Assembly (NCBI GenBank): GCA_044359955.1
Contig: JBIKLF010000010.1
Location: 1,460 to 65,459 of the forward strand
DNA length: 64,000 nucleotides
Source: Chthoniobacterales bacterium
GTDB lineage: Bacteria > Verrucomicrobiota > Verrucomicrobiia > Chthoniobacterales > JACTMZ01
Reading direction: 5' to 3'
Shown here: positions 42,933 to 58,586 of the stretch, piece after piece
Position numbering within the stretch: position 1 is the first letter of the stretch
How the letters are laid out: every line of letters begins with the position of its first letter
Translations under genes and position numbers: made by a program
The notes under the pieces: generated by a model
The model's input: only the letters and a program-made list of their open reading frames with translations
Database searches by the model: none
What the model was told of the DNA's origin: nothing

Positions 42933-43039
42933 TGCAATGTGGTGGATTGAAAAGCGGCGTCGAGCCGCCGCACTCCAAAAAAAACGTGGCCTGTGCTCAG
43001 GGGCGGCTGGCCAGGGTTGGCCGGAGTTGTTCGATGGGG
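42933..43039. repeat. Roughly 107-bp direct repeat (REP plus duplicated 3' end of the AAA-DUF4143 gene), left copy
   Basis: Aligns to 45379-45486; minus strand encodes PIEQLRPTLASRP* versus PVEQLRPTLTKRP*. Confidence 0.82.
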
Positions 43040-45378: not shown

Positions 45379-45486
45379 TGCAATGTGGTGCATTGAAAAG
45401 CGGCGTCGAGCCGCCGCACTCCAAAAAACGACGCGGCCTGTGCTCAGGGACGTTTGGTCAGGGTTGGCCGGAGTTGTTCGACGGGG
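45379..45486. repeat. Roughly 108-bp direct repeat, right copy, containing REP AAAGCGGCGTCGAGCCGCCGCACTCCAAAA
   Basis: REP copies at 42951, 45397, 46685 and 58511. Confidence 0.82.
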
Positions 45487-46586
45487 AGGAACTCGATTTC
45501 CAGATTTTTGATGCGACGGGTGTAGGGTTTGGTGATGTTGGGGGCGATGACGAGGTTGCGGCCGTGTTGGTAGGACTCGCGGAAGCGGGCGAGGCTGTTT
45601 GCTTCGAAGGCCTCGGCGTTCCATTTGGTTTCGAGCGCATCGACGCGGCTGCGGGTTTGCGGGATGACGAAATCGATCTCGCCGCCGGATTCGTCGCGCC
45701 AGAAATGCAGACGTGGCAGCGGGATGGAGAGCAGTGTGTCCAGCACCAGGTGCTCCCAGAGCTGTCCGCAGTCTTCGGGGCGCAAGCGGTCCCAGCCGCG
45801 GGCGTGGCAAATGAAACCGGTGTCGAATCCGTAGATTTTCGGACGGGCCAGCAACTCGCGCCGGCCGCCGCCTGAGAACGGACGCAGCAGACGGACCGCG
45901 TGCGTGGCTTGCAGCACTTCGAGCCAGCTCATCACCGTGGGCCGGCTCACGCCGGCGTGTTTGGCCAGGGAGGTAATCTCGGCGAGTCCGCCGCTCTGGC
46001 GCAGGATGAGTTCGACGAGCAAAAGGAAGGCGCTTCTTTTTTCGACGCGGAAAAGCTCCTGCACATCGCGCGCGAAGTAGGAGTCGAGCCATTCGGCGTA
46101 GAATTCCCAGTCGGGTGCGGCGGACAACAAGGCCGGGGGCAGACCGCCGCGCAGCAAGCGGACCTTGAGGTCTTGGATACCGAAGGCGGGAAGTTCTTCC
46201 ACCAGCACGGGCTCGAGAACAACCGAGCGTTTGCGTCCGGTCAGGGTGTCGCGGAATTTGCGGGTCGCGGCCAGCGTGGAGGATCCGGTGGCCAGGATTT
46301 TCAATTCAGGAAAGGCATCGGTGGCGATCTTCAGCACGCGGCTGGGGTCGGGTAATTGGTGGACCTCGTCGAGGATCACGAGGGGTTTGCTCACGGCCCG
46401 GAAGAACGCTTCCGGGTCGGCGAGACGTGCGGCTTCGGCCGGCAGGTCACAGTTGAGGAATTCCGCGTCACCGAACTCCTTGGCGAGGACGGTTTTCCCA
46501 ACGCGCCGTACGCCGGCCAGCCAGACCAGAGGGACTTTGCTCCAAGCGGCCGCAAGGCGCTGTTTCCAGAGAGGACGGTCGATCAT
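45444..46586 (-). CDS. AAA ATPase with DUF4143 domain (paralog of 13571-14701)
   Basis: GVRRVGKT, DEVH, ATGSS, FDTG, EIDFV..LETKW. Confidence 0.85.
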   Translation of the reverse strand: MIDRPLWKQRLAAAWSKVPLVWLAGVRRVGKTVLAKEFGDAEFLNCDLPAEAARLADPEAFFRAVSKPLVILDEVHQLPDPSRVLKIATDAFPELKILATGSSTLAATRKFRDTLTGRKRSVVLEPVLVEELPAFGIQDLKVRLLRGGLPPALLSAAPDWEFYAEWLDSYFARDVQELFRVEKRSAFLLLVELILRQSGGLAEITSLAKHAGVSRPTVMSWLEVLQATHAVRLLRPFSGGGRRELLARPKIYGFDTGFICHARGWDRLRPEDCGQLWEHLVLDTLLSIPLPRLHFWRDESGGEIDFVIPQTRSRVDALETKWNAEAFEANSLARFRESYQHGRNLVIAPNITKPYTRRIKNLEIEFLPVEQLRPTLTKRP

Positions 46587-46595
46587 TGAAGGTCA

Positions 46596-46625
46596 ACTTT
46601 ACATCTAACGCGGAGAATGTAAAGT
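46596..46625 (-). promoter_or_regulatory. Palindromic operator overlapping a leaderless promoter
   Basis: ACTTTACAT-12 bp-ATGTAAAGT; minus strand TTTACA-16 bp-TAAAGT-9 nt-ATG. Confidence 0.6.
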
Positions 46626-46710
46626 CTGCTTTCGTTCGTTGGTGGAGTTGCTGGGGCACATTGCGGCGGCTGAGGGGCTGGGGAAAAGCGGCGTCGAGCC
46701 GCCGCACTCC

Positions 46711-46743
46711 AAAAAAAACGCGCCCCGGTTTCCCGGGGCGCGT
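46711..46743 (-). terminator. Intrinsic terminator
   Basis: 11-bp stem ACGCGCCCCGG/CCGGGGCGCGT with GAAA loop and U-tract on the minus strand. Confidence 0.8.
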
Positions 46744-46767
46744 GTGATTTCTAACGAGACGGTCCGT

Positions 46768-46899
46768 TTAGCAGCAGCCGGCAGCGCAGTCGCAGGGGCA
46801 GCATTGGCCGCCGCAGTCGGTGCACTTGCAGGCTTCTTTCGCCGTGACCGTGAAGGACAGGGCGAGGACCGCCAGGATTGCGAAGAGGAATTTTTTCAT
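46768..46899 (-). CDS. 43-aa secreted Cys-rich (metallothionein-like) peptide
   Basis: MKKFLFAILAVLALSFTVTA signal plus KEACKCTDCGGQCCPCDCAAGCC; GGAG SD; terminator follows. Confidence 0.7.
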   Translation of the reverse strand: MKKFLFAILAVLALSFTVTAKEACKCTDCGGQCCPCDCAAGCC

Positions 46900-46975
46900 T
46901 TTGATATTCTCCGTTGAGGTTTCGTTCCAAGGTTCCCTCAGCCAACGAGGACGGAAGCCGACGCTGAGTGAGCCC

Positions 46976-47281
46976 TCAGGCTCGCGGCGGGGGAACGGGC
47001 GGACGTGAGGTCCGCACAACGTAGGAGTCATCGGTCAGTTGCACGCAGGGCGAACTGCCGGGCGAGAAAATCGCGAGCTTTTGTCCGGCGGGGATCATCA
47101 CGGATGACACGCCCGGAGCTTGGCAGGAAAGGGGCGGACAGGGGCAAGCCGTGGCACAGCAGGCCGGATCGGTCTCGCAGCAGGCGGAGGCGCAAACTTC
47201 CGGCGCGGGGACCGTGACCGCGGAGGCCATGGGCGCCATGGCCAAGGAGGCGAGCAGGGCGAGGAGGGCGGCTGCTTTCAT
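46976..47281 (-). CDS. Cys-rich secreted leader-like protein with C-terminal RPPVPPPR
   Basis: Signal peptide, 9 Cys, poly-Pro C-terminus; TTGACA-16 bp-TACGTT promoter directly upstream. Confidence 0.65.
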   Translation of the reverse strand: MKAAALLALLASLAMAPMASAVTVPAPEVCASACCETDPACCATACPCPPLSCQAPGVSSVMIPAGQKLAIFSPGSSPCVQLTDDSYVVRTSRPPVPPPRA

Positions 47282-47288
47282 TGAGGGC

Positions 47289-47316
47289 AACGTAGTCCAT
47301 GAGGTGGGGTTGTCAA
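47289..47316 (-). promoter_or_regulatory. Sigma70-like promoter (leaderless) for the Cys-rich unit
   Basis: TTGACA (47316-47311), TACGTT (47294-47289), ATG 7 nt downstream. Confidence 0.55.
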
Positions 47317-47485
47317 TGAGGAGTCCCTGAACCCGCGCGCGGCGGGTAGGGGCACGCGGCTCGCGTGCCCGTGGCGAAGGTGGCGGACGAGTGGGCCGCT
47401 CATCCCTACCTGACGAGTGATCCGGTGTGCCTTGACTTGGGGGCTTTGTTCCCGCCCAATTCGCGGGTTCCTCTCGGAAACAGCC

Positions 47486-49816
47486 ATGGAGAATTTTCCC
47501 ATCATCATTCTCGTCGCGATCTTCGTCGCGGCGTTTCTTGCGCCGTGGCTCCATCGCGTGCTGGGGGACCGTTGCGGGCTGGTCTTGAGTCTGGTGCCGC
47601 TGGCCGGAGCGGCGGGTTACCTCATGCTGTTGCCGCAGGTCCTGGCGGGACAGGCGGTGGTGTTTCAACGCGCGTGGGTTCCTTCGCTCGGAATCTCGCT
47701 GGATTTTTACATCGATGGATTGAGCCTGCTTTTCCTGCTCCTGATCAGCGTGATCGGGGTCTTTGTCACTTGGTATGCGGCGGGTTACTTGGCCGGGAAG
47801 AAAGACCTCGGGCGGTTCTATCTTTATCTGTTCGGTTTCATGGGTGCCATGCTGGGAGTGGTCAGTTCGGATCACCTCGTGCTGCTCTTCATTTTCTGGG
47901 AGCTGACCAGTATTTCGTCCTACCTTCTCATCGGTTACTACCACAACGACCTAAAATCGCGGGCCGCGGCCTTGCAGGCTTTGCTCGTCACGGGCGCGGG
48001 TGGGCTGTGCCTGCTGGCCGGCGTGATCTTGCTCGGGAACTTGGCCGGAACCTTCAAGATCTCGGAGTTGCTGCAAATGGACGCCGCTGTTTTGGCGGCC
48101 CAACCGGGATTCACCACGATCCTCATTTTGGTTTTGCTCGGGGCGTTCACCAAGTCCGCCCAATTTCCTTTTCACTTTTGGTTGCCCAATGCCATGGCCG
48201 CGCCGGCGCCGGTCAGCGCGTATCTCCATTCGGCCACCATGGTGAAGGCGGGCATCTTTCTCCTCGCGCGTTTGTTTCCGCTCCTCTCGGCCAGTCCGCT
48301 TTGGTTCCCCATCGTCGCTCCGGTCGGGGCAGTGACCATGATCTTGGGTGTCTTTATGGCGCTGGGTCAGAATGACCTGAAAAAGATCCTCGCTTACACC
48401 ACGGTCGCTGTTCTGGGCACGTTGACCATGCTGCTGGGGATCGGGACGGAGTTGGCGGTGAAAGCGGCCATGGCTTACCTGCTGGCCCACGCGCTCTACA
48501 AAGCGGCGCTTTTCATGACCTCCGGCTCGGTCGATCACGAAACGGGGACGCGGGATCCGGAATTGCTCGGCGGCTTGCGCCGCGTCATGCCGTTCACCGC
48601 GGCGGCAGCCTTGATCGGAGGCTTGTCGATGGCCGGGGTGCCGATGCTGCTCGGTTTTGTCAGCAAAGAATATTTTTACAAAGCGCTGCTCGATGCGCCG
48701 GGGGCGGGCGTGTGGTGGGAAGTGCTCGGGGTCTCGGCCAGCGTGGTCATGGTGGCGCTGGCCATCACGGCGGGGATCAAGCCGTTCTGGGGTGCGCTCC
48801 AACCGACGCCGAAGCAGGCCCACGAGGCGCCCTGGACCATGTGGCTGGGACCGTTGCTTCTCGGGGCGGCGGGGATCAAGACGGGATTGTTTCCGTCCTA
48901 CGCGGGCGCGGGCCTGGTCGGTCCGGCCGCGGCCGCGGTGCTGGGGGATGCGGGCTTCGTGGCCGATCTGAAACTCTGGCACGGATGGACCATGGCGCTC
49001 GGGCTGAGTGCGGTGACGGTCGTGCTCGGGTTGGCCCTTTATGCCCTGCTCCCGCGGATTCGCGCGGCGCGCGGGATTTACGAGCGACTGGCACGTTTCG
49101 GTCCGGAGCGGGGCTATGACAATCTGCTGGCCGGACTGCTCGCCTTCGCGCGTTGGCAAACGGGCGTCCTGCAGAACGGGTATCTGCGCAATTACATCAT
49201 GACCGTGGTGCTCTTCACCGTGGTTCTGGTCGGCTGGATGTTGCCCGGCGTGGTGCCCTCGCCCGATTGGAGCACGATGGTGCGACCGAATGTGCTGACC
49301 GTCACGGTCTGCCTTCTGATCATGGCCGGCGCGGTTTTTGCCTGCCTGACCAGTTCACGTTTCACCGCGATCCTCGCCCTCGGGGTGGTCGGGATCGGGA
49401 TTGCCATGCTTTACTTCATGTTCAGCGCGCCGGATCTGGCCATGACGCAGGTGCTGGTCGAAACGCTGACCTTGGTGCTCTTCGTGCTGGCCTTTTACCG
49501 GCTGCCGGTTTTCGGGAACTACTCGAAGAAAGCGGTCAAGGTGCGTGATGCGCTGGTGGCCGCGGTTTTTGGCACGGTCATGGCCATGGTCGTGCTGGTC
49601 GAGCAGTCCTCGCGGGCGGCGGACAACAATGTGTCGCGTTTCATGAGCGAGAACAGCCTCACTCTGGCCAACGGGCGCAATGTGGTGAACGTCATCCTCG
49701 TCGATTTCCGCGCCCTCGACACGCTGGGCGAAATCACGGTGCTGGCCATCGCGGCGTTGGGAGTTTTTGCCATGATGCGGCTGCGTCCGGGTTCCAAGAA
49801 GGAGGACGGCAAATGA
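47486..49816 (+). CDS. mrpA: Mrp Na+/H+ antiporter subunit A
   Basis: FWELTSISSYLLIG, KSAQFPFHFWLP, HSATMVKAG, NVILVDFRALDTLGE. Confidence 0.93.
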   Translation: MENFPIIILVAIFVAAFLAPWLHRVLGDRCGLVLSLVPLAGAAGYLMLLPQVLAGQAVVFQRAWVPSLGISLDFYIDGLSLLFLLLISVIGVFVTWYAAGYLAGKKDLGRFYLYLFGFMGAMLGVVSSDHLVLLFIFWELTSISSYLLIGYYHNDLKSRAAALQALLVTGAGGLCLLAGVILLGNLAGTFKISELLQMDAAVLAAQPGFTTILILVLLGAFTKSAQFPFHFWLPNAMAAPAPVSAYLHSATMVKAGIFLLARLFPLLSASPLWFPIVAPVGAVTMILGVFMALGQNDLKKILAYTTVAVLGTLTMLLGIGTELAVKAAMAYLLAHALYKAALFMTSGSVDHETGTRDPELLGGLRRVMPFTAAAALIGGLSMAGVPMLLGFVSKEYFYKALLDAPGAGVWWEVLGVSASVVMVALAITAGIKPFWGALQPTPKQAHEAPWTMWLGPLLLGAAGIKTGLFPSYAGAGLVGPAAAAVLGDAGFVADLKLWHGWTMALGLSAVTVVLGLALYALLPRIRAARGIYERLARFGPERGYDNLLAGLLAFARWQTGVLQNGYLRNYIMTVVLFTVVLVGWMLPGVVPSPDWSTMVRPNVLTVTVCLLIMAGAVFACLTSSRFTAILALGVVGIGIAMLYFMFSAPDLAMTQVLVETLTLVLFVLAFYRLPVFGNYSKKAVKVRDALVAAVFGTVMAMVVLVEQSSRAADNNVSRFMSENSLTLANGRNVVNVILVDFRALDTLGEITVLAIAALGVFAMMRLRPGSKKEDGK

Positions 49817-58496: not shown

Positions 58497-58586
58497 GGGG
58501 GGAAGATAGCAAAGCGGCGTCAAGCCGCCGCACTCCAAAATGGACCGGGAGCCGCCGCGGCCCGGCCGGCGGCAGCCAACGGTCGT

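Follow-up and report, generated by a model that had tools for sequence, protein, structure and literature searches.

Can the ribosome that finishes one short reading frame set the output of the next, in response to what the emerging chain meets outside the cytoplasm? This question is raised by a two-gene unit of about 600 nucleotides (nt) on the minus strand of a 64,000-nt stretch of DNA from a Chthoniobacterales bacterium (assembly GCA_044359955.1, contig JBIKLF010000010.1, positions 1,460 to 65,459). Hereafter, the whole stretch is called the window, and all coordinates refer to it. The unit consists of a promoter, a first open reading frame (ORF1), a spacer, a second open reading frame (ORF2) and a terminator, and both ORFs encode small, cysteine-rich products with signal-peptide-like beginnings. 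The unit is a real, conserved and accessory two-gene module of two Chthoniobacterales families. The reading that we favour, tentatively and at a little below even chances, is that ORF1 is a CutF-like leader, which senses through its nascent chain and thereby sets the output of the exported, thiol-rich ORF2 product.

Results and discussion

A conserved unit in variable surroundings

A check against the sequence placed every element of the unit, base for base, where the first-pass annotation, made from the letters alone, had seen it. These are a promoter with TTGACA and TACGTT boxes (47289–47316), ORF1 with 101 amino acids (aa) and a TGA stop codon (46976–47281), a 76-nt spacer (46900–46975), ORF2 with 43 aa and a TAA stop codon (46768–46899) and an intrinsic terminator (46710–46743). 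Its counts of cysteines (Cys) were also correct, with nine in ORF1 and nine within the last 23 residues of ORF2.

Conservation was followed in 31 genomes of the family, all belonging to a single genus. In the organism's own genome (G000; 2.66 Mb, 41 contigs, 97% complete), ORF1 and ORF2 are each present as a single copy. Full-length ORF1 (E ≤ 7e-5) was found in 18 of the 31 genomes, and full-length ORF2 (E ≤ 4e-6) in the identical 18. The other 13, two of which are at least 90% complete, have neither ORF, and such an arrangement goes well beyond chance. At 16 of the 18 loci, ORF2 lies 69–84 nt downstream of ORF1 on the same strand, and at the remaining two the contig ends 36 and 67 nt after ORF1, with ORF2 on another contig. 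One genome (G007) has a second ORF2 copy, at a contig end. The flanking genes vary between genomes, both upstream and downstream. Because the two ORFs are adjacent wherever the contig allows it, and this with differing flanking genes, the pair travels as a unit.

Thus, the earlier description of the unit as self-contained holds in the genus, where synteny, Cys pattern and proline tail are all conserved. The expectation that gene callers would miss both ORFs was wrong. Both have been called, and a collection of 5.8 billion proteins holds 28 ORF1 clusters and 30 ORF2 clusters, for which all the source names shown are “hypothetical protein”. One NCBI record is labelled Terrimicrobiaceae. We refer to the units of this genus as type A.

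The leader, ORF1

By inspection, the N-terminus of ORF1 resembles a signal peptide (residues 1–21, 47219–47281), with MK, a 12-residue hydrophobic core and A-S-A, and an AlphaFold2 model has a helix at residues 3–14. The nine Cys are at positions 30, 34, 35, 41, 42, 46, 48, 53 and 79. In the orthologue alignment, residues 30–53 (47123–47194) form a cluster, C30-x3-C34-C35-x5-C41-C42-x3-C46-x-C48-PP-x2-C53, which includes two CxxxC motifs (C30-x3-C34 and C42-x3-C46). Across the 18 orthologues, C34, C35, C46 and C48 never vary, and at least 90% retain C30 and C42. The ORF ends in TSRPPVPPPRA, and its tail, RPPVPPPRA followed by TGA (46976–47005), is a candidate ribosome-stalling module, singled out by its invariance. 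V-P-P-P-R-A and the TGA stop codon are identical in all 18 type A units, among which the identity to the window copy drops to 33–41%. Also in all 18, the last Cys of the cluster lies 44–49 residues, and the first Cys 64–70 residues, before the PPP.

The selection on ORF1 is uneven along its length. The median ratio of non-synonymous to synonymous substitution rates (dN/dS) is 0.41, and the corresponding ratio of the proportions of differences (pN/pS) is 0.57 in the signal peptide, 0.43 in the Cys cluster, 0.78 in the linker and 0.32 in the tail. Synonymous variation in the proline codons at tail positions −8, −7 and −5 points to selection on the peptide. AlphaFold2, run on an 18-row alignment, gave no confident fold (mean predicted local distance difference test score, pLDDT, 57; predicted template-modelling score, pTM, 0.20; linker pLDDT below 50). 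As the ends, the Cys motif and the length are kept, but neither the sequence of the linker nor a fold, ORF1 resembles a regulatory leader rather than a working protein. A scan of the own genome for PPPRx or RAPP tails returned 78 frames, and ORF1 is the sole one among these to combine a start codon with a signal peptide and Cys motifs. Overall, we consider it likely that ORF1 is a stalling regulatory leader.

ORF1 could instead be a stable periplasmic partner of ORF2, such as a chaperone, a carrier or one half of a two-peptide system, with the proline-rich end as a binding or sorting motif. Such a role would fit with the purifying selection on ORF1 overall, with its having as many Cys as ORF2 and with the constant co-occurrence of the two genes. 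It fits poorly with a linker that is near-neutral yet fixed in length, with the lack of a confident fold, and with a conserved element located exactly at the stop codon, whose TGA is itself invariant. Moreover, secreted CutF is degraded rapidly, according to the main-text account of that protein. We regard a stable partner as very improbable.

Relation to known arrest peptides

In the main-text parts of its two reports, CutF of Rhodobacter capsulatus is described as a protein of 118 aa ending in P109-EPEGPPPRL-118 (bioRxiv 10.1101/2025.02.05.636593). Its Sec signal peptide, its CxxxC motif and its PPP are all necessary for CutO to be produced in a Cu-dependent way, a change of PPP to PAP abolishes regulation, deletion of efp mimics copper, and the mechanism includes an intergenic stem-loop (PMC9973294; bioRxiv 10.1101/2025.02.05.636593). 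In the published model, disulfide formation in the nascent chain releases the stall, and according to the authors CutF is the only case of an extracytoplasmic ligand being sensed through a stalled nascent chain (bioRxiv 10.1101/2025.02.05.636593).

Compared with CutF as portrayed there, ORF1 has a similar size (both about 100–118 aa), a Sec signal peptide, CxxxC and a PPP-R-x-stop ending (VPPPRA versus GPPPRL), and both loci have a short structured intergenic region and an exported downstream product. The CutF/CruR-type anatomy noted by the first-pass annotation is therefore present, from the signal-peptide-like N-terminus and CxxxC to the fixed spacing and an invariant PPP tail near GPPPRL. 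The differences are also clear. ORF1 has eight clustered Cys instead of four, its mRNA appears to be leaderless, and its cargo is a 43-aa Cys-rich peptide and not a multicopper oxidase. Furthermore, the spacer hairpin of the window does not include the Shine-Dalgarno (SD) sequence, and the host has no recognisable Dsb system.

The last difference comes from a search of the own, 97% complete genome, in which the models for HMA, Cu-oxidase_3, DsbA, Thioredoxin_4, DsbB and VKOR had no match. HMA was present in 13 of 14 control genomes. The organism may thus live without the textbook copper-handling proteins and without the textbook periplasmic disulfide-forming proteins, so that none of the usual tools for copper can be recognised and thiols may remain reduced after export. 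EF-P is encoded in the genome.

CruR of Bordetella pertussis defines DUF2946, in which a CXXC motif and RAPP are 45 residues apart, a spacing kept in more than 2000 members. According to the main-text parts of the same paper, copper relieves CruR stalling, the read-out is Rho-dependent, and the Pfam logo of DUF2946 shows the RAPP form (PMC9426467). ORF1 is similar in having a Cys motif, a conserved C-terminal proline motif and about 45 residues between the two. In CruR, however, RAPP is located three residues before the end, the intergenic region is unstructured and 162 nt long, and the action is independent of the signal sequence, whereas ORF1 ends in PPPRA-stop ahead of a structured 76-nt spacer. 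The signal peptide, CxxxC, proline-rich motif within the last 15 residues and approximately 45-residue spacing of the DUF2946/CutF-like class are all found in ORF1, but it has no match above the Pfam gathering score for PF11162 (23.7 bits). For this reason we file ORF1 as CutF-like and not as a member, though it is probably a distant relative of the class.

Like SecM, VemP, MifM, ApdA/ApdP and the uA_LPPP class, ORF1 is an exported leader with a C-terminal element ahead of the next gene. Within these arrest peptides, the uA_LPPP class arrests at PPP, and others pause while the stop codon occupies the A site (PMC10987492). Those that monitor Sec or YidC precede secA, secDF or yidC and are mostly RAPP-like (PMC10987492). 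In contrast, ORF1 has a PPPRA tail, is followed by ORF2 and carries a Cys cluster, which places it outside the RAPP-type arrest peptides as delimited in that study.

The first-pass annotation had not recognised the ORF1–ORF2 pairing from any known system. In line with this, the literature searched, including the main-text parts of the CutF and CruR papers, contained no description of the pairing, nor did it contain one of leader-peptide control of metallothioneins. The words “Verrucomicrobia”, “leaderless” and “metallothionein” are absent from the main text of PMC9973294.

A sister type and a wider family of tails

The back-translated tail, CCN CCN GTN CCN CCN CCN CGN GCN TGA, was scanned against genome_contigs with one genome per species (185,579 species). 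At least 119 stretches matched, of which 80 were listed as loci, and all 80 were analysed. Among the matches listed were 25 leader ORFs in Verrucomicrobiota/Chthoniobacterales records, six of type A and 19 of a sister type, type B. The six type A loci are not independent, because their species are already represented among the genus genomes. A Cys-rich mini-ORF follows 63–76 nt downstream in 24 of these 25 listed leaders, and the remaining locus is cut by an edge.

The type B leader has about 110 aa, with a signal peptide, a CC...DC..H...CCxxC cluster, a hydrophobic linker and the RPPVPPPRA tail. From its last cluster Cys to PPP there are 41 residues in 12 of the 19 leaders (range 22–69, median 41). 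The ORF2 of type B has the sequence MKYLL...ASATSRSADCCGGGxCCxxxxxCCAK, with three CC pairs that do not vary in any of 18 copies. In profile comparisons with hhalign, the leaders of the two types were matched over their last 48 columns with 97.5% probability (E = 6e-12), and the cargos over 30 columns with 86% (E = 5e-6). Four type B leaders were compared with DUF2946 (cut-off 23.7 bits). Two had full-length, sub-threshold matches (19.4 and 15.2 bits) and two had none.

Also among the matches listed were seven further plausible leaders with an identical PPVPPPRA-TGA tail, mostly from outside the Verrucomicrobiota. Four are alphaproteobacterial (L080, L088, L115 and L131) and are followed, 56–76 nt downstream, by a Met/His-rich protein. 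Three of these four proteins were scanned in Pfam and all are DUF305. Two of the alphaproteobacterial leaders reach 18.0 and 21.6 bits with DUF2946, both sub-threshold. A Gemmatimonadota leader (L059) precedes a TonB-dependent receptor, and a Myxococcales leader (L125) precedes a DsbA-like thioredoxin. Across these six loci, the downstream gene is 34–127 nt away, and the locus of the seventh leader, from an Opitutaceae member, is cut off. The other 48 listed loci were judged to be chance matches in G+C-rich DNA. From these occurrences, the PPVPPPRA-TGA tail seems to be a reusable module. A HMMER search with the type A profile in 1.84 billion representative proteins retrieved 15 proteins, and the remotest end in SVPPPRG, LVPPPRS, PLPPPRV or DVPPPRA.

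The type B model found the leader in 29 of 301 sampled genomes of the order, with 25 of 39 in one family and one to two in each of three others. Its negatives are weak, because the same model detects type A leaders in none of 30. Scans across the phylum covered 400 sampled genomes each, the own genome included. Outside the genus, the type A ORF2 model gave signal-peptide-level matches alone, and matches to the type B leader were confined to one other family of this order. In the approximately 390 sampled genomes outside the order, neither model found the system, with the type B negatives again weak.

The cargo, ORF2

ORF2 (46768–46899) reads MKKFLFAILAVLALSFTVTA followed by KEACKCTDCGGQCCPCDCAAGCC. 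Residues 1–20 are signal-peptide-like and end in T-V-T-A, and the predicted mature peptide is the 23-aa KEACKCTDCGGQCCPCDCAAGCC, 39% of which is Cys. The Cys pattern is C-x-C-x-D-C-G-G-x-C-C-P-C-[DEA]-C-x-A-G-C-C, and none of its nine Cys varies among the 16 copies compared. The median dN/dS is 0.57, and the length is 40–47 aa across 34 aligned copies of both types. ORF2 has no lipobox. Family searches returned sub-threshold, signal-peptide-type matches alone (LPAM_1 in Pfam and three in NCBIfam), and the metallothionein family models did not match. The best match in a PDB sequence search was a defensin, which at E = 1.3 is not significant, and the ESM Atlas had no match at or above 0.9, no model and no informative cluster. 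The earlier impression of a conserved, secreted-looking and very Cys-rich product without a family thus stands, and ORF2 is a putative new family of tiny secreted Cys-rich peptides.

ORF2 has in common with metallothioneins a very high Cys content and C-x-C, CC and C-x2-C spacings, and small fungal Cu-metallothioneins resemble it in size. The known bacterial metallothioneins (SmtA/BmtA and MymT) are cytoplasmic, unlike ORF2 with its signal peptide. We read the ORF2 product as a candidate periplasmic thiolate buffer, a mini-metallothionein, because of its Cys density and vicinal CC pairs, because of its position behind a CutF-like leader, and because the host genome has no recognisable copper and Dsb proteins. 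That it binds metal through thiolates is plausible, though we would put it below an even chance.

Another potential explanation is that ORF2 encodes the precursor of a ribosomally synthesised and post-translationally modified peptide (RiPP), similar to bufferins or methanobactin, with its Cys converted by enzymes encoded elsewhere. Bufferins are described as periplasmic copper chelators, made as Cys-containing peptides that carry a Sec signal (PMC11626156), and ORF2 is likewise small, Cys-containing and equipped with a Sec signal peptide. Bufferins reportedly need an adjacent MNIO enzyme and a partner, and neither is in this genome, where a terminator directly follows ORF2. As the MNIO model (PF05114) had no match in the own, 97% complete genome, a bufferin-type modification is unlikely. 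Other points against a RiPP are the variable neighbours, among which no enzyme recurs, and the lack of a Pfam or NCBIfam precursor family for ORF2. We consider a RiPP precursor highly improbable.

Two more small ORFs of the own genome, both outside the window, resemble ORF2. They are C6:188-385(+), with 65 aa, and C20:67480-67626(−), with 48 aa. Each begins with a signal-peptide-like stretch and has an ORF2-like motif, C-K-(C)-x-D-C-G, and neither is preceded by an ORF1-type leader. For the second, the Pfam model Metallothi_Euk2 gave a sub-threshold match (E = 0.0018; 19 bits, with the cut-off at 27).

The spacer RNA

In the orthologue comparison, the 76-nt spacer (46900–46975) contains, besides a hairpin, two conserved sequences, the box GCGUCGGCU and GGAACGAAACCUCAACGGAG. 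The elements common to the type A spacers are the box, an 8-base-pair hairpin (CUUCCGUC/GGCGGAAG) and the sequence UUGGAACGAAACCUCAACGGAG. Spacer lengths are 69–84 nt in type A and 63–75 nt in type B. The hairpin is 93.8% paired in the type A copies other than that of the window, four of its eight pairs have changes on both sides, and its covariation score was reached by none of 500 shuffles. In the window copy, the 3' arm reads GGCUGAGGG and not the usual GGCGGAAGG, an arm that is intact in the other 15 type A copies. RNA folding predicts for the window a hairpin of its own (46937–46972), whose alternative stem, CUCAGC/GCUGAG, lies nearer to the stop codon. The window copy may thus be regulated differently, or it may be decaying.

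The type B spacers have hairpins of 7–11 base pairs in the same place, with stems quite different from those of type A. In single-sequence folds, the hairpin is found 15 to 19 nt past the stop codon in almost all of the 34 spacers. The SD sequence of ORF2, GGAG (46909–46912), is located 9 nt before the ATG, is kept in 13 of 16 type A spacers, and is not part of the hairpin.

RNAalifold, applied to a MAFFT alignment of the type B spacers, was discarded because the variable hairpin was misaligned. Its sole output was a 6-pair helix of the last ORF1 codons (GCG.GCC) with the conserved box (GGC.CGU), in which both sides are nearly invariant. Such a helix of the last two ORF1 codons with the box possibly competes with the hairpin, whose 5' arm is that box. 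A search of Rfam returned nothing above the gathering score. The spacer had no match, and seven sub-threshold rows lie on or beside the terminator (46658–46832).

A proposed mechanism and its difficulties

In the reading that we favour, the unit would be transcribed autonomously, and ORF1 would be a regulatory leader rather than an end product. Its signal peptide would bring the nascent chain into the Sec translocon. With the ribosome at V-P-P-P-R-A-stop, the Cys cluster, 44–70 residues back, would just have emerged on the periplasmic side. There it would most likely meet Cu(I) or another thiophilic metal, or else respond to the thiol-redox state, and the pull on the chain would change. This pull would set how long the ribosome dwells at the EF-P-sensitive PPP/stop site, and the dwell time at the end of ORF1 would set the output of ORF2, 76 nt downstream. 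The product of ORF2 would be a Sec-exported peptide of about 23 residues with nine Cys, acting as a periplasmic thiolate buffer. That ORF1 controls ORF2 is, in our estimate, slightly favoured, while metal as the signal sensed is conceivable but somewhat doubtful. Stalling could affect ORF2 through translation initiation, through protection from Rho or RNases, or through tethering of the mRNA, and we infer an RNA link from the stall to the ribosome-binding site of ORF2.

Several observations speak against this reading, in whole or in part. ORF1 matches no Pfam family even at E ≤ 10, DUF2946 included, and no NCBIfam model. The invariance of the tail in type B is by construction, since these loci were found through the tail pattern. 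One database cluster (P0013), with three sequences 95% identical to ORF1, ends in RPPVPQPRA, in which the PPP run is broken. The cluster may come from a strain that is regulated differently, or the change may be a sequencing error. An additional constraint on RNA or codons in the ORF1 tail is compatible with the data, because nucleotide variation is almost absent from its final four codons, CCG CCG CGA GCC (proportion of synonymous differences, pS, 0.30, compared with 0.59–0.68 elsewhere). Among the 76 neighbouring ORFs of 25 units, no family is represented more than three times, and metal-related genes are not enriched. One type B unit adjoins a protein with a heavy-metal-binding domain (HMBD). 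The polarity of the response may also differ from that of CutF, because release of the CutF stall needs disulfide formation and this host has no recognisable Dsb system.

The RNA link, too, has points against it. Between the front edge expected for a ribosome at the ORF1 stop codon and the start of the spacer hairpin there are 4–8 nt, and for this reason the CutF picture of a melted, SD-shielding stem-loop is not directly transferable. A switch based on SD shielding was rejected, as partition-function folds in which the footprint of a stop-codon ribosome was either masked or left open revealed no robust gain in SD accessibility. With the footprint masked, the type A spacers folded alone had a median gain in unpaired probability of 0.06, with an increase in 4 of 16 and a decrease in 2 of 16, and the 18 type B spacers had no gain. 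Another round of folding had a similar outcome.

This result gives some room to localisation without switching, in which the paused ORF1 complex tethers the bicistronic mRNA to the Sec translocon and ORF2 is made beside the channel. Localised synthesis has been proposed for SecM and SecA. ORF2, with 43 aa, is too short for co-translational targeting, the pair is always together with a short spacer in between, and a Cys-rich peptide would presumably be harmful or wasted in the cytoplasm. Nevertheless, tethering leaves unexplained why a Cys cluster is conserved at a fixed distance from the tail, and the two other small secreted Cys-rich ORFs of the genome do without such a leader. We consider localisation alone quite unlikely.

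Expression data are compatible with a bicistronic RNA in the genus. The stretch was found in lake-water metagenomes, and six RNA-labelled runs hold a fifth to a quarter of its sampled words. Contigs from four RNA libraries, belonging to four studies, cover 46761–47029, which includes ORF2, the spacer and the last approximately 50 nt of ORF1. Two RNA-library contigs of 276 and 246 nt bridge the ORF1 tail and ORF2 and run into sequence resembling the 3' flank or ORF1 of close relatives. RNA libraries may contain DNA, however, and contigs cannot prove a single transcript; by the same token, the parts free of RNA contigs (most of ORF1 and the flanks) carry no meaning either way.

What is sensed could also be something other than metal. 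In a redox or secretion sensor, the ORF1 Cys cluster would report the thiol-disulfide state or the Sec capacity, and the role of ORF2 would be to buffer thiol redox, or to act as a signalling or antimicrobial peptide rich in disulfides. The release of the CutF stall is itself nascent-chain disulfide formation in the published model, as far as its main text describes it, and SecM, VemP and MifM are exported arrest peptides able to monitor export. The neighbouring genes have no link to metal, and the genome has no recognisable Dsb proteins, so periplasmic thiol chemistry should be unusual in this organism. Moreover, the sole PDB sequence match of ORF2, non-significant as it is, is a defensin. 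Other observations point back toward metal. The gene after ORF1 does not encode a Sec or YidC component, the ORF1 tail is unlike RAPP, and in relatives leaders with an identical tail precede DUF305 and TonB-receptor genes. For DUF2946, the closest family, a tie to Cu is described for both members studied. Finally, CC pairs and an odd number of Cys would fit thiolate clusters better than a disulfide knot. On balance, we find a redox or secretion sensor unlikely.

Promoter, start site and neighbouring features

The promoter consists of a −35 box, TTGACA (47316–47311), a 16-nt spacer and a −10 box, TACGTT (47294–47289), and the ATG of ORF1, at 47281, follows 7 nt past the −10 box. A TTGAC[A/T/G] −35 box, a spacer of 16–17 nt and a TAnnnT box are found at the same position in 18 of 18 type A orthologues, with 5–9 nt between the −10 box and the start codon, which is ATG in 11 units and GTG in seven. 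The type B layout is similar, with 6–9 nt in 17 of 19 units and 11 nt in the remaining two. An SD-like motif is absent upstream of the leader ORF in 36 of the 37 leaders of both types. Because only 7 nt separate the −10 box from the ATG, because the promoters of the orthologues are equally close to the start, and because SD-like motifs are missing, the ORF1 mRNA is probably leaderless. A strict consensus scan did not call the window promoter, because TACGTT fits at just three of six positions.

Mechanical translation extends the ORF1 frame to 322 aa, from a GTG at 47944. However, in 11 of 18 orthologues a stop codon lies 3–16 codons upstream of the MK/VK start, so the true start of ORF1 is at 47281. 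At the other end of the unit, the terminator has an 11-base-pair stem with 10 G-C pairs (46743–46718), a GAAA loop and a T run. A similar G+C-rich hairpin, mostly with a T run, lies 3' of ORF2 in every orthologue that reaches that far.

A promoter-like site, TTTACA-16-TAAAGT, is located at 46596–46623 (−), 9 nt before an ATG at 46586. The gene behind it encodes a 380-aa AAA-ATPase/DUF4143-like protein (45444–46586, −). As this ATPase gene and the two other small Cys-rich ORFs of the genome also have a leaderless-type layout, such a layout may be a habit of the organism and not a feature of the unit.

A 27-nt G+C-rich repeat, GGAGTGCGGCGGCTCGACGCCGCTTTT, occurs four times in the window, against none expected, and 22 times in the genome. 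The four copies are all on the minus strand (42950–42976, 45396–45422, 46684–46710 and 58510–58536). One is located directly 3' of the terminator of the unit, and the repeat likewise follows the terminator in the relatives L009, L010 and L013. It looks like an intergenic repeat of the repetitive extragenic palindrome (REP) kind. Divergent from the unit, at 47417–49816 (+), lies a gene for a 799-aa MrpA/MnhA-like cation/proton antiporter subunit. We draw no functional link to it, because the unit has other neighbours in other genomes.

Significance

A broader proposal is that ORF2 and its sister with three CC pairs represent an unrecognised class of exported mini-metallothioneins, with mature peptides of 22–23 aa and 6–9 Cys, whose synthesis a nascent-chain metal sensor acting across the membrane would switch on when needed. 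They would be the main periplasmic buffer for copper or other soft metals in Chthoniobacterales, an order that in this proposal has no recognisable HMA-domain proteins, multicopper oxidases or Dsb oxidases. We put this forward as a rather unlikely possibility. The tail reaches further than the order. Its presence in leaders of at least three phyla makes the PPVPPPRA-TGA module a candidate arrest sequence.

If the CutF-like reading is true, it would extend the CutF paradigm to a new phylum, to a probably leaderless mRNA, and to a novel type of cargo, with a very small, thiol-rich peptide for export in place of an enzyme or a transporter. The unit is compact and self-contained and has natural variants, and could therefore serve as a model of how a periplasmic signal is passed to the ribosome and on to the next cistron. 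For the organisms themselves, the same reading would give a picture of how thiophilic metals are dealt with by streamlined freshwater bacteria that have no textbook machinery for copper and disulfides.

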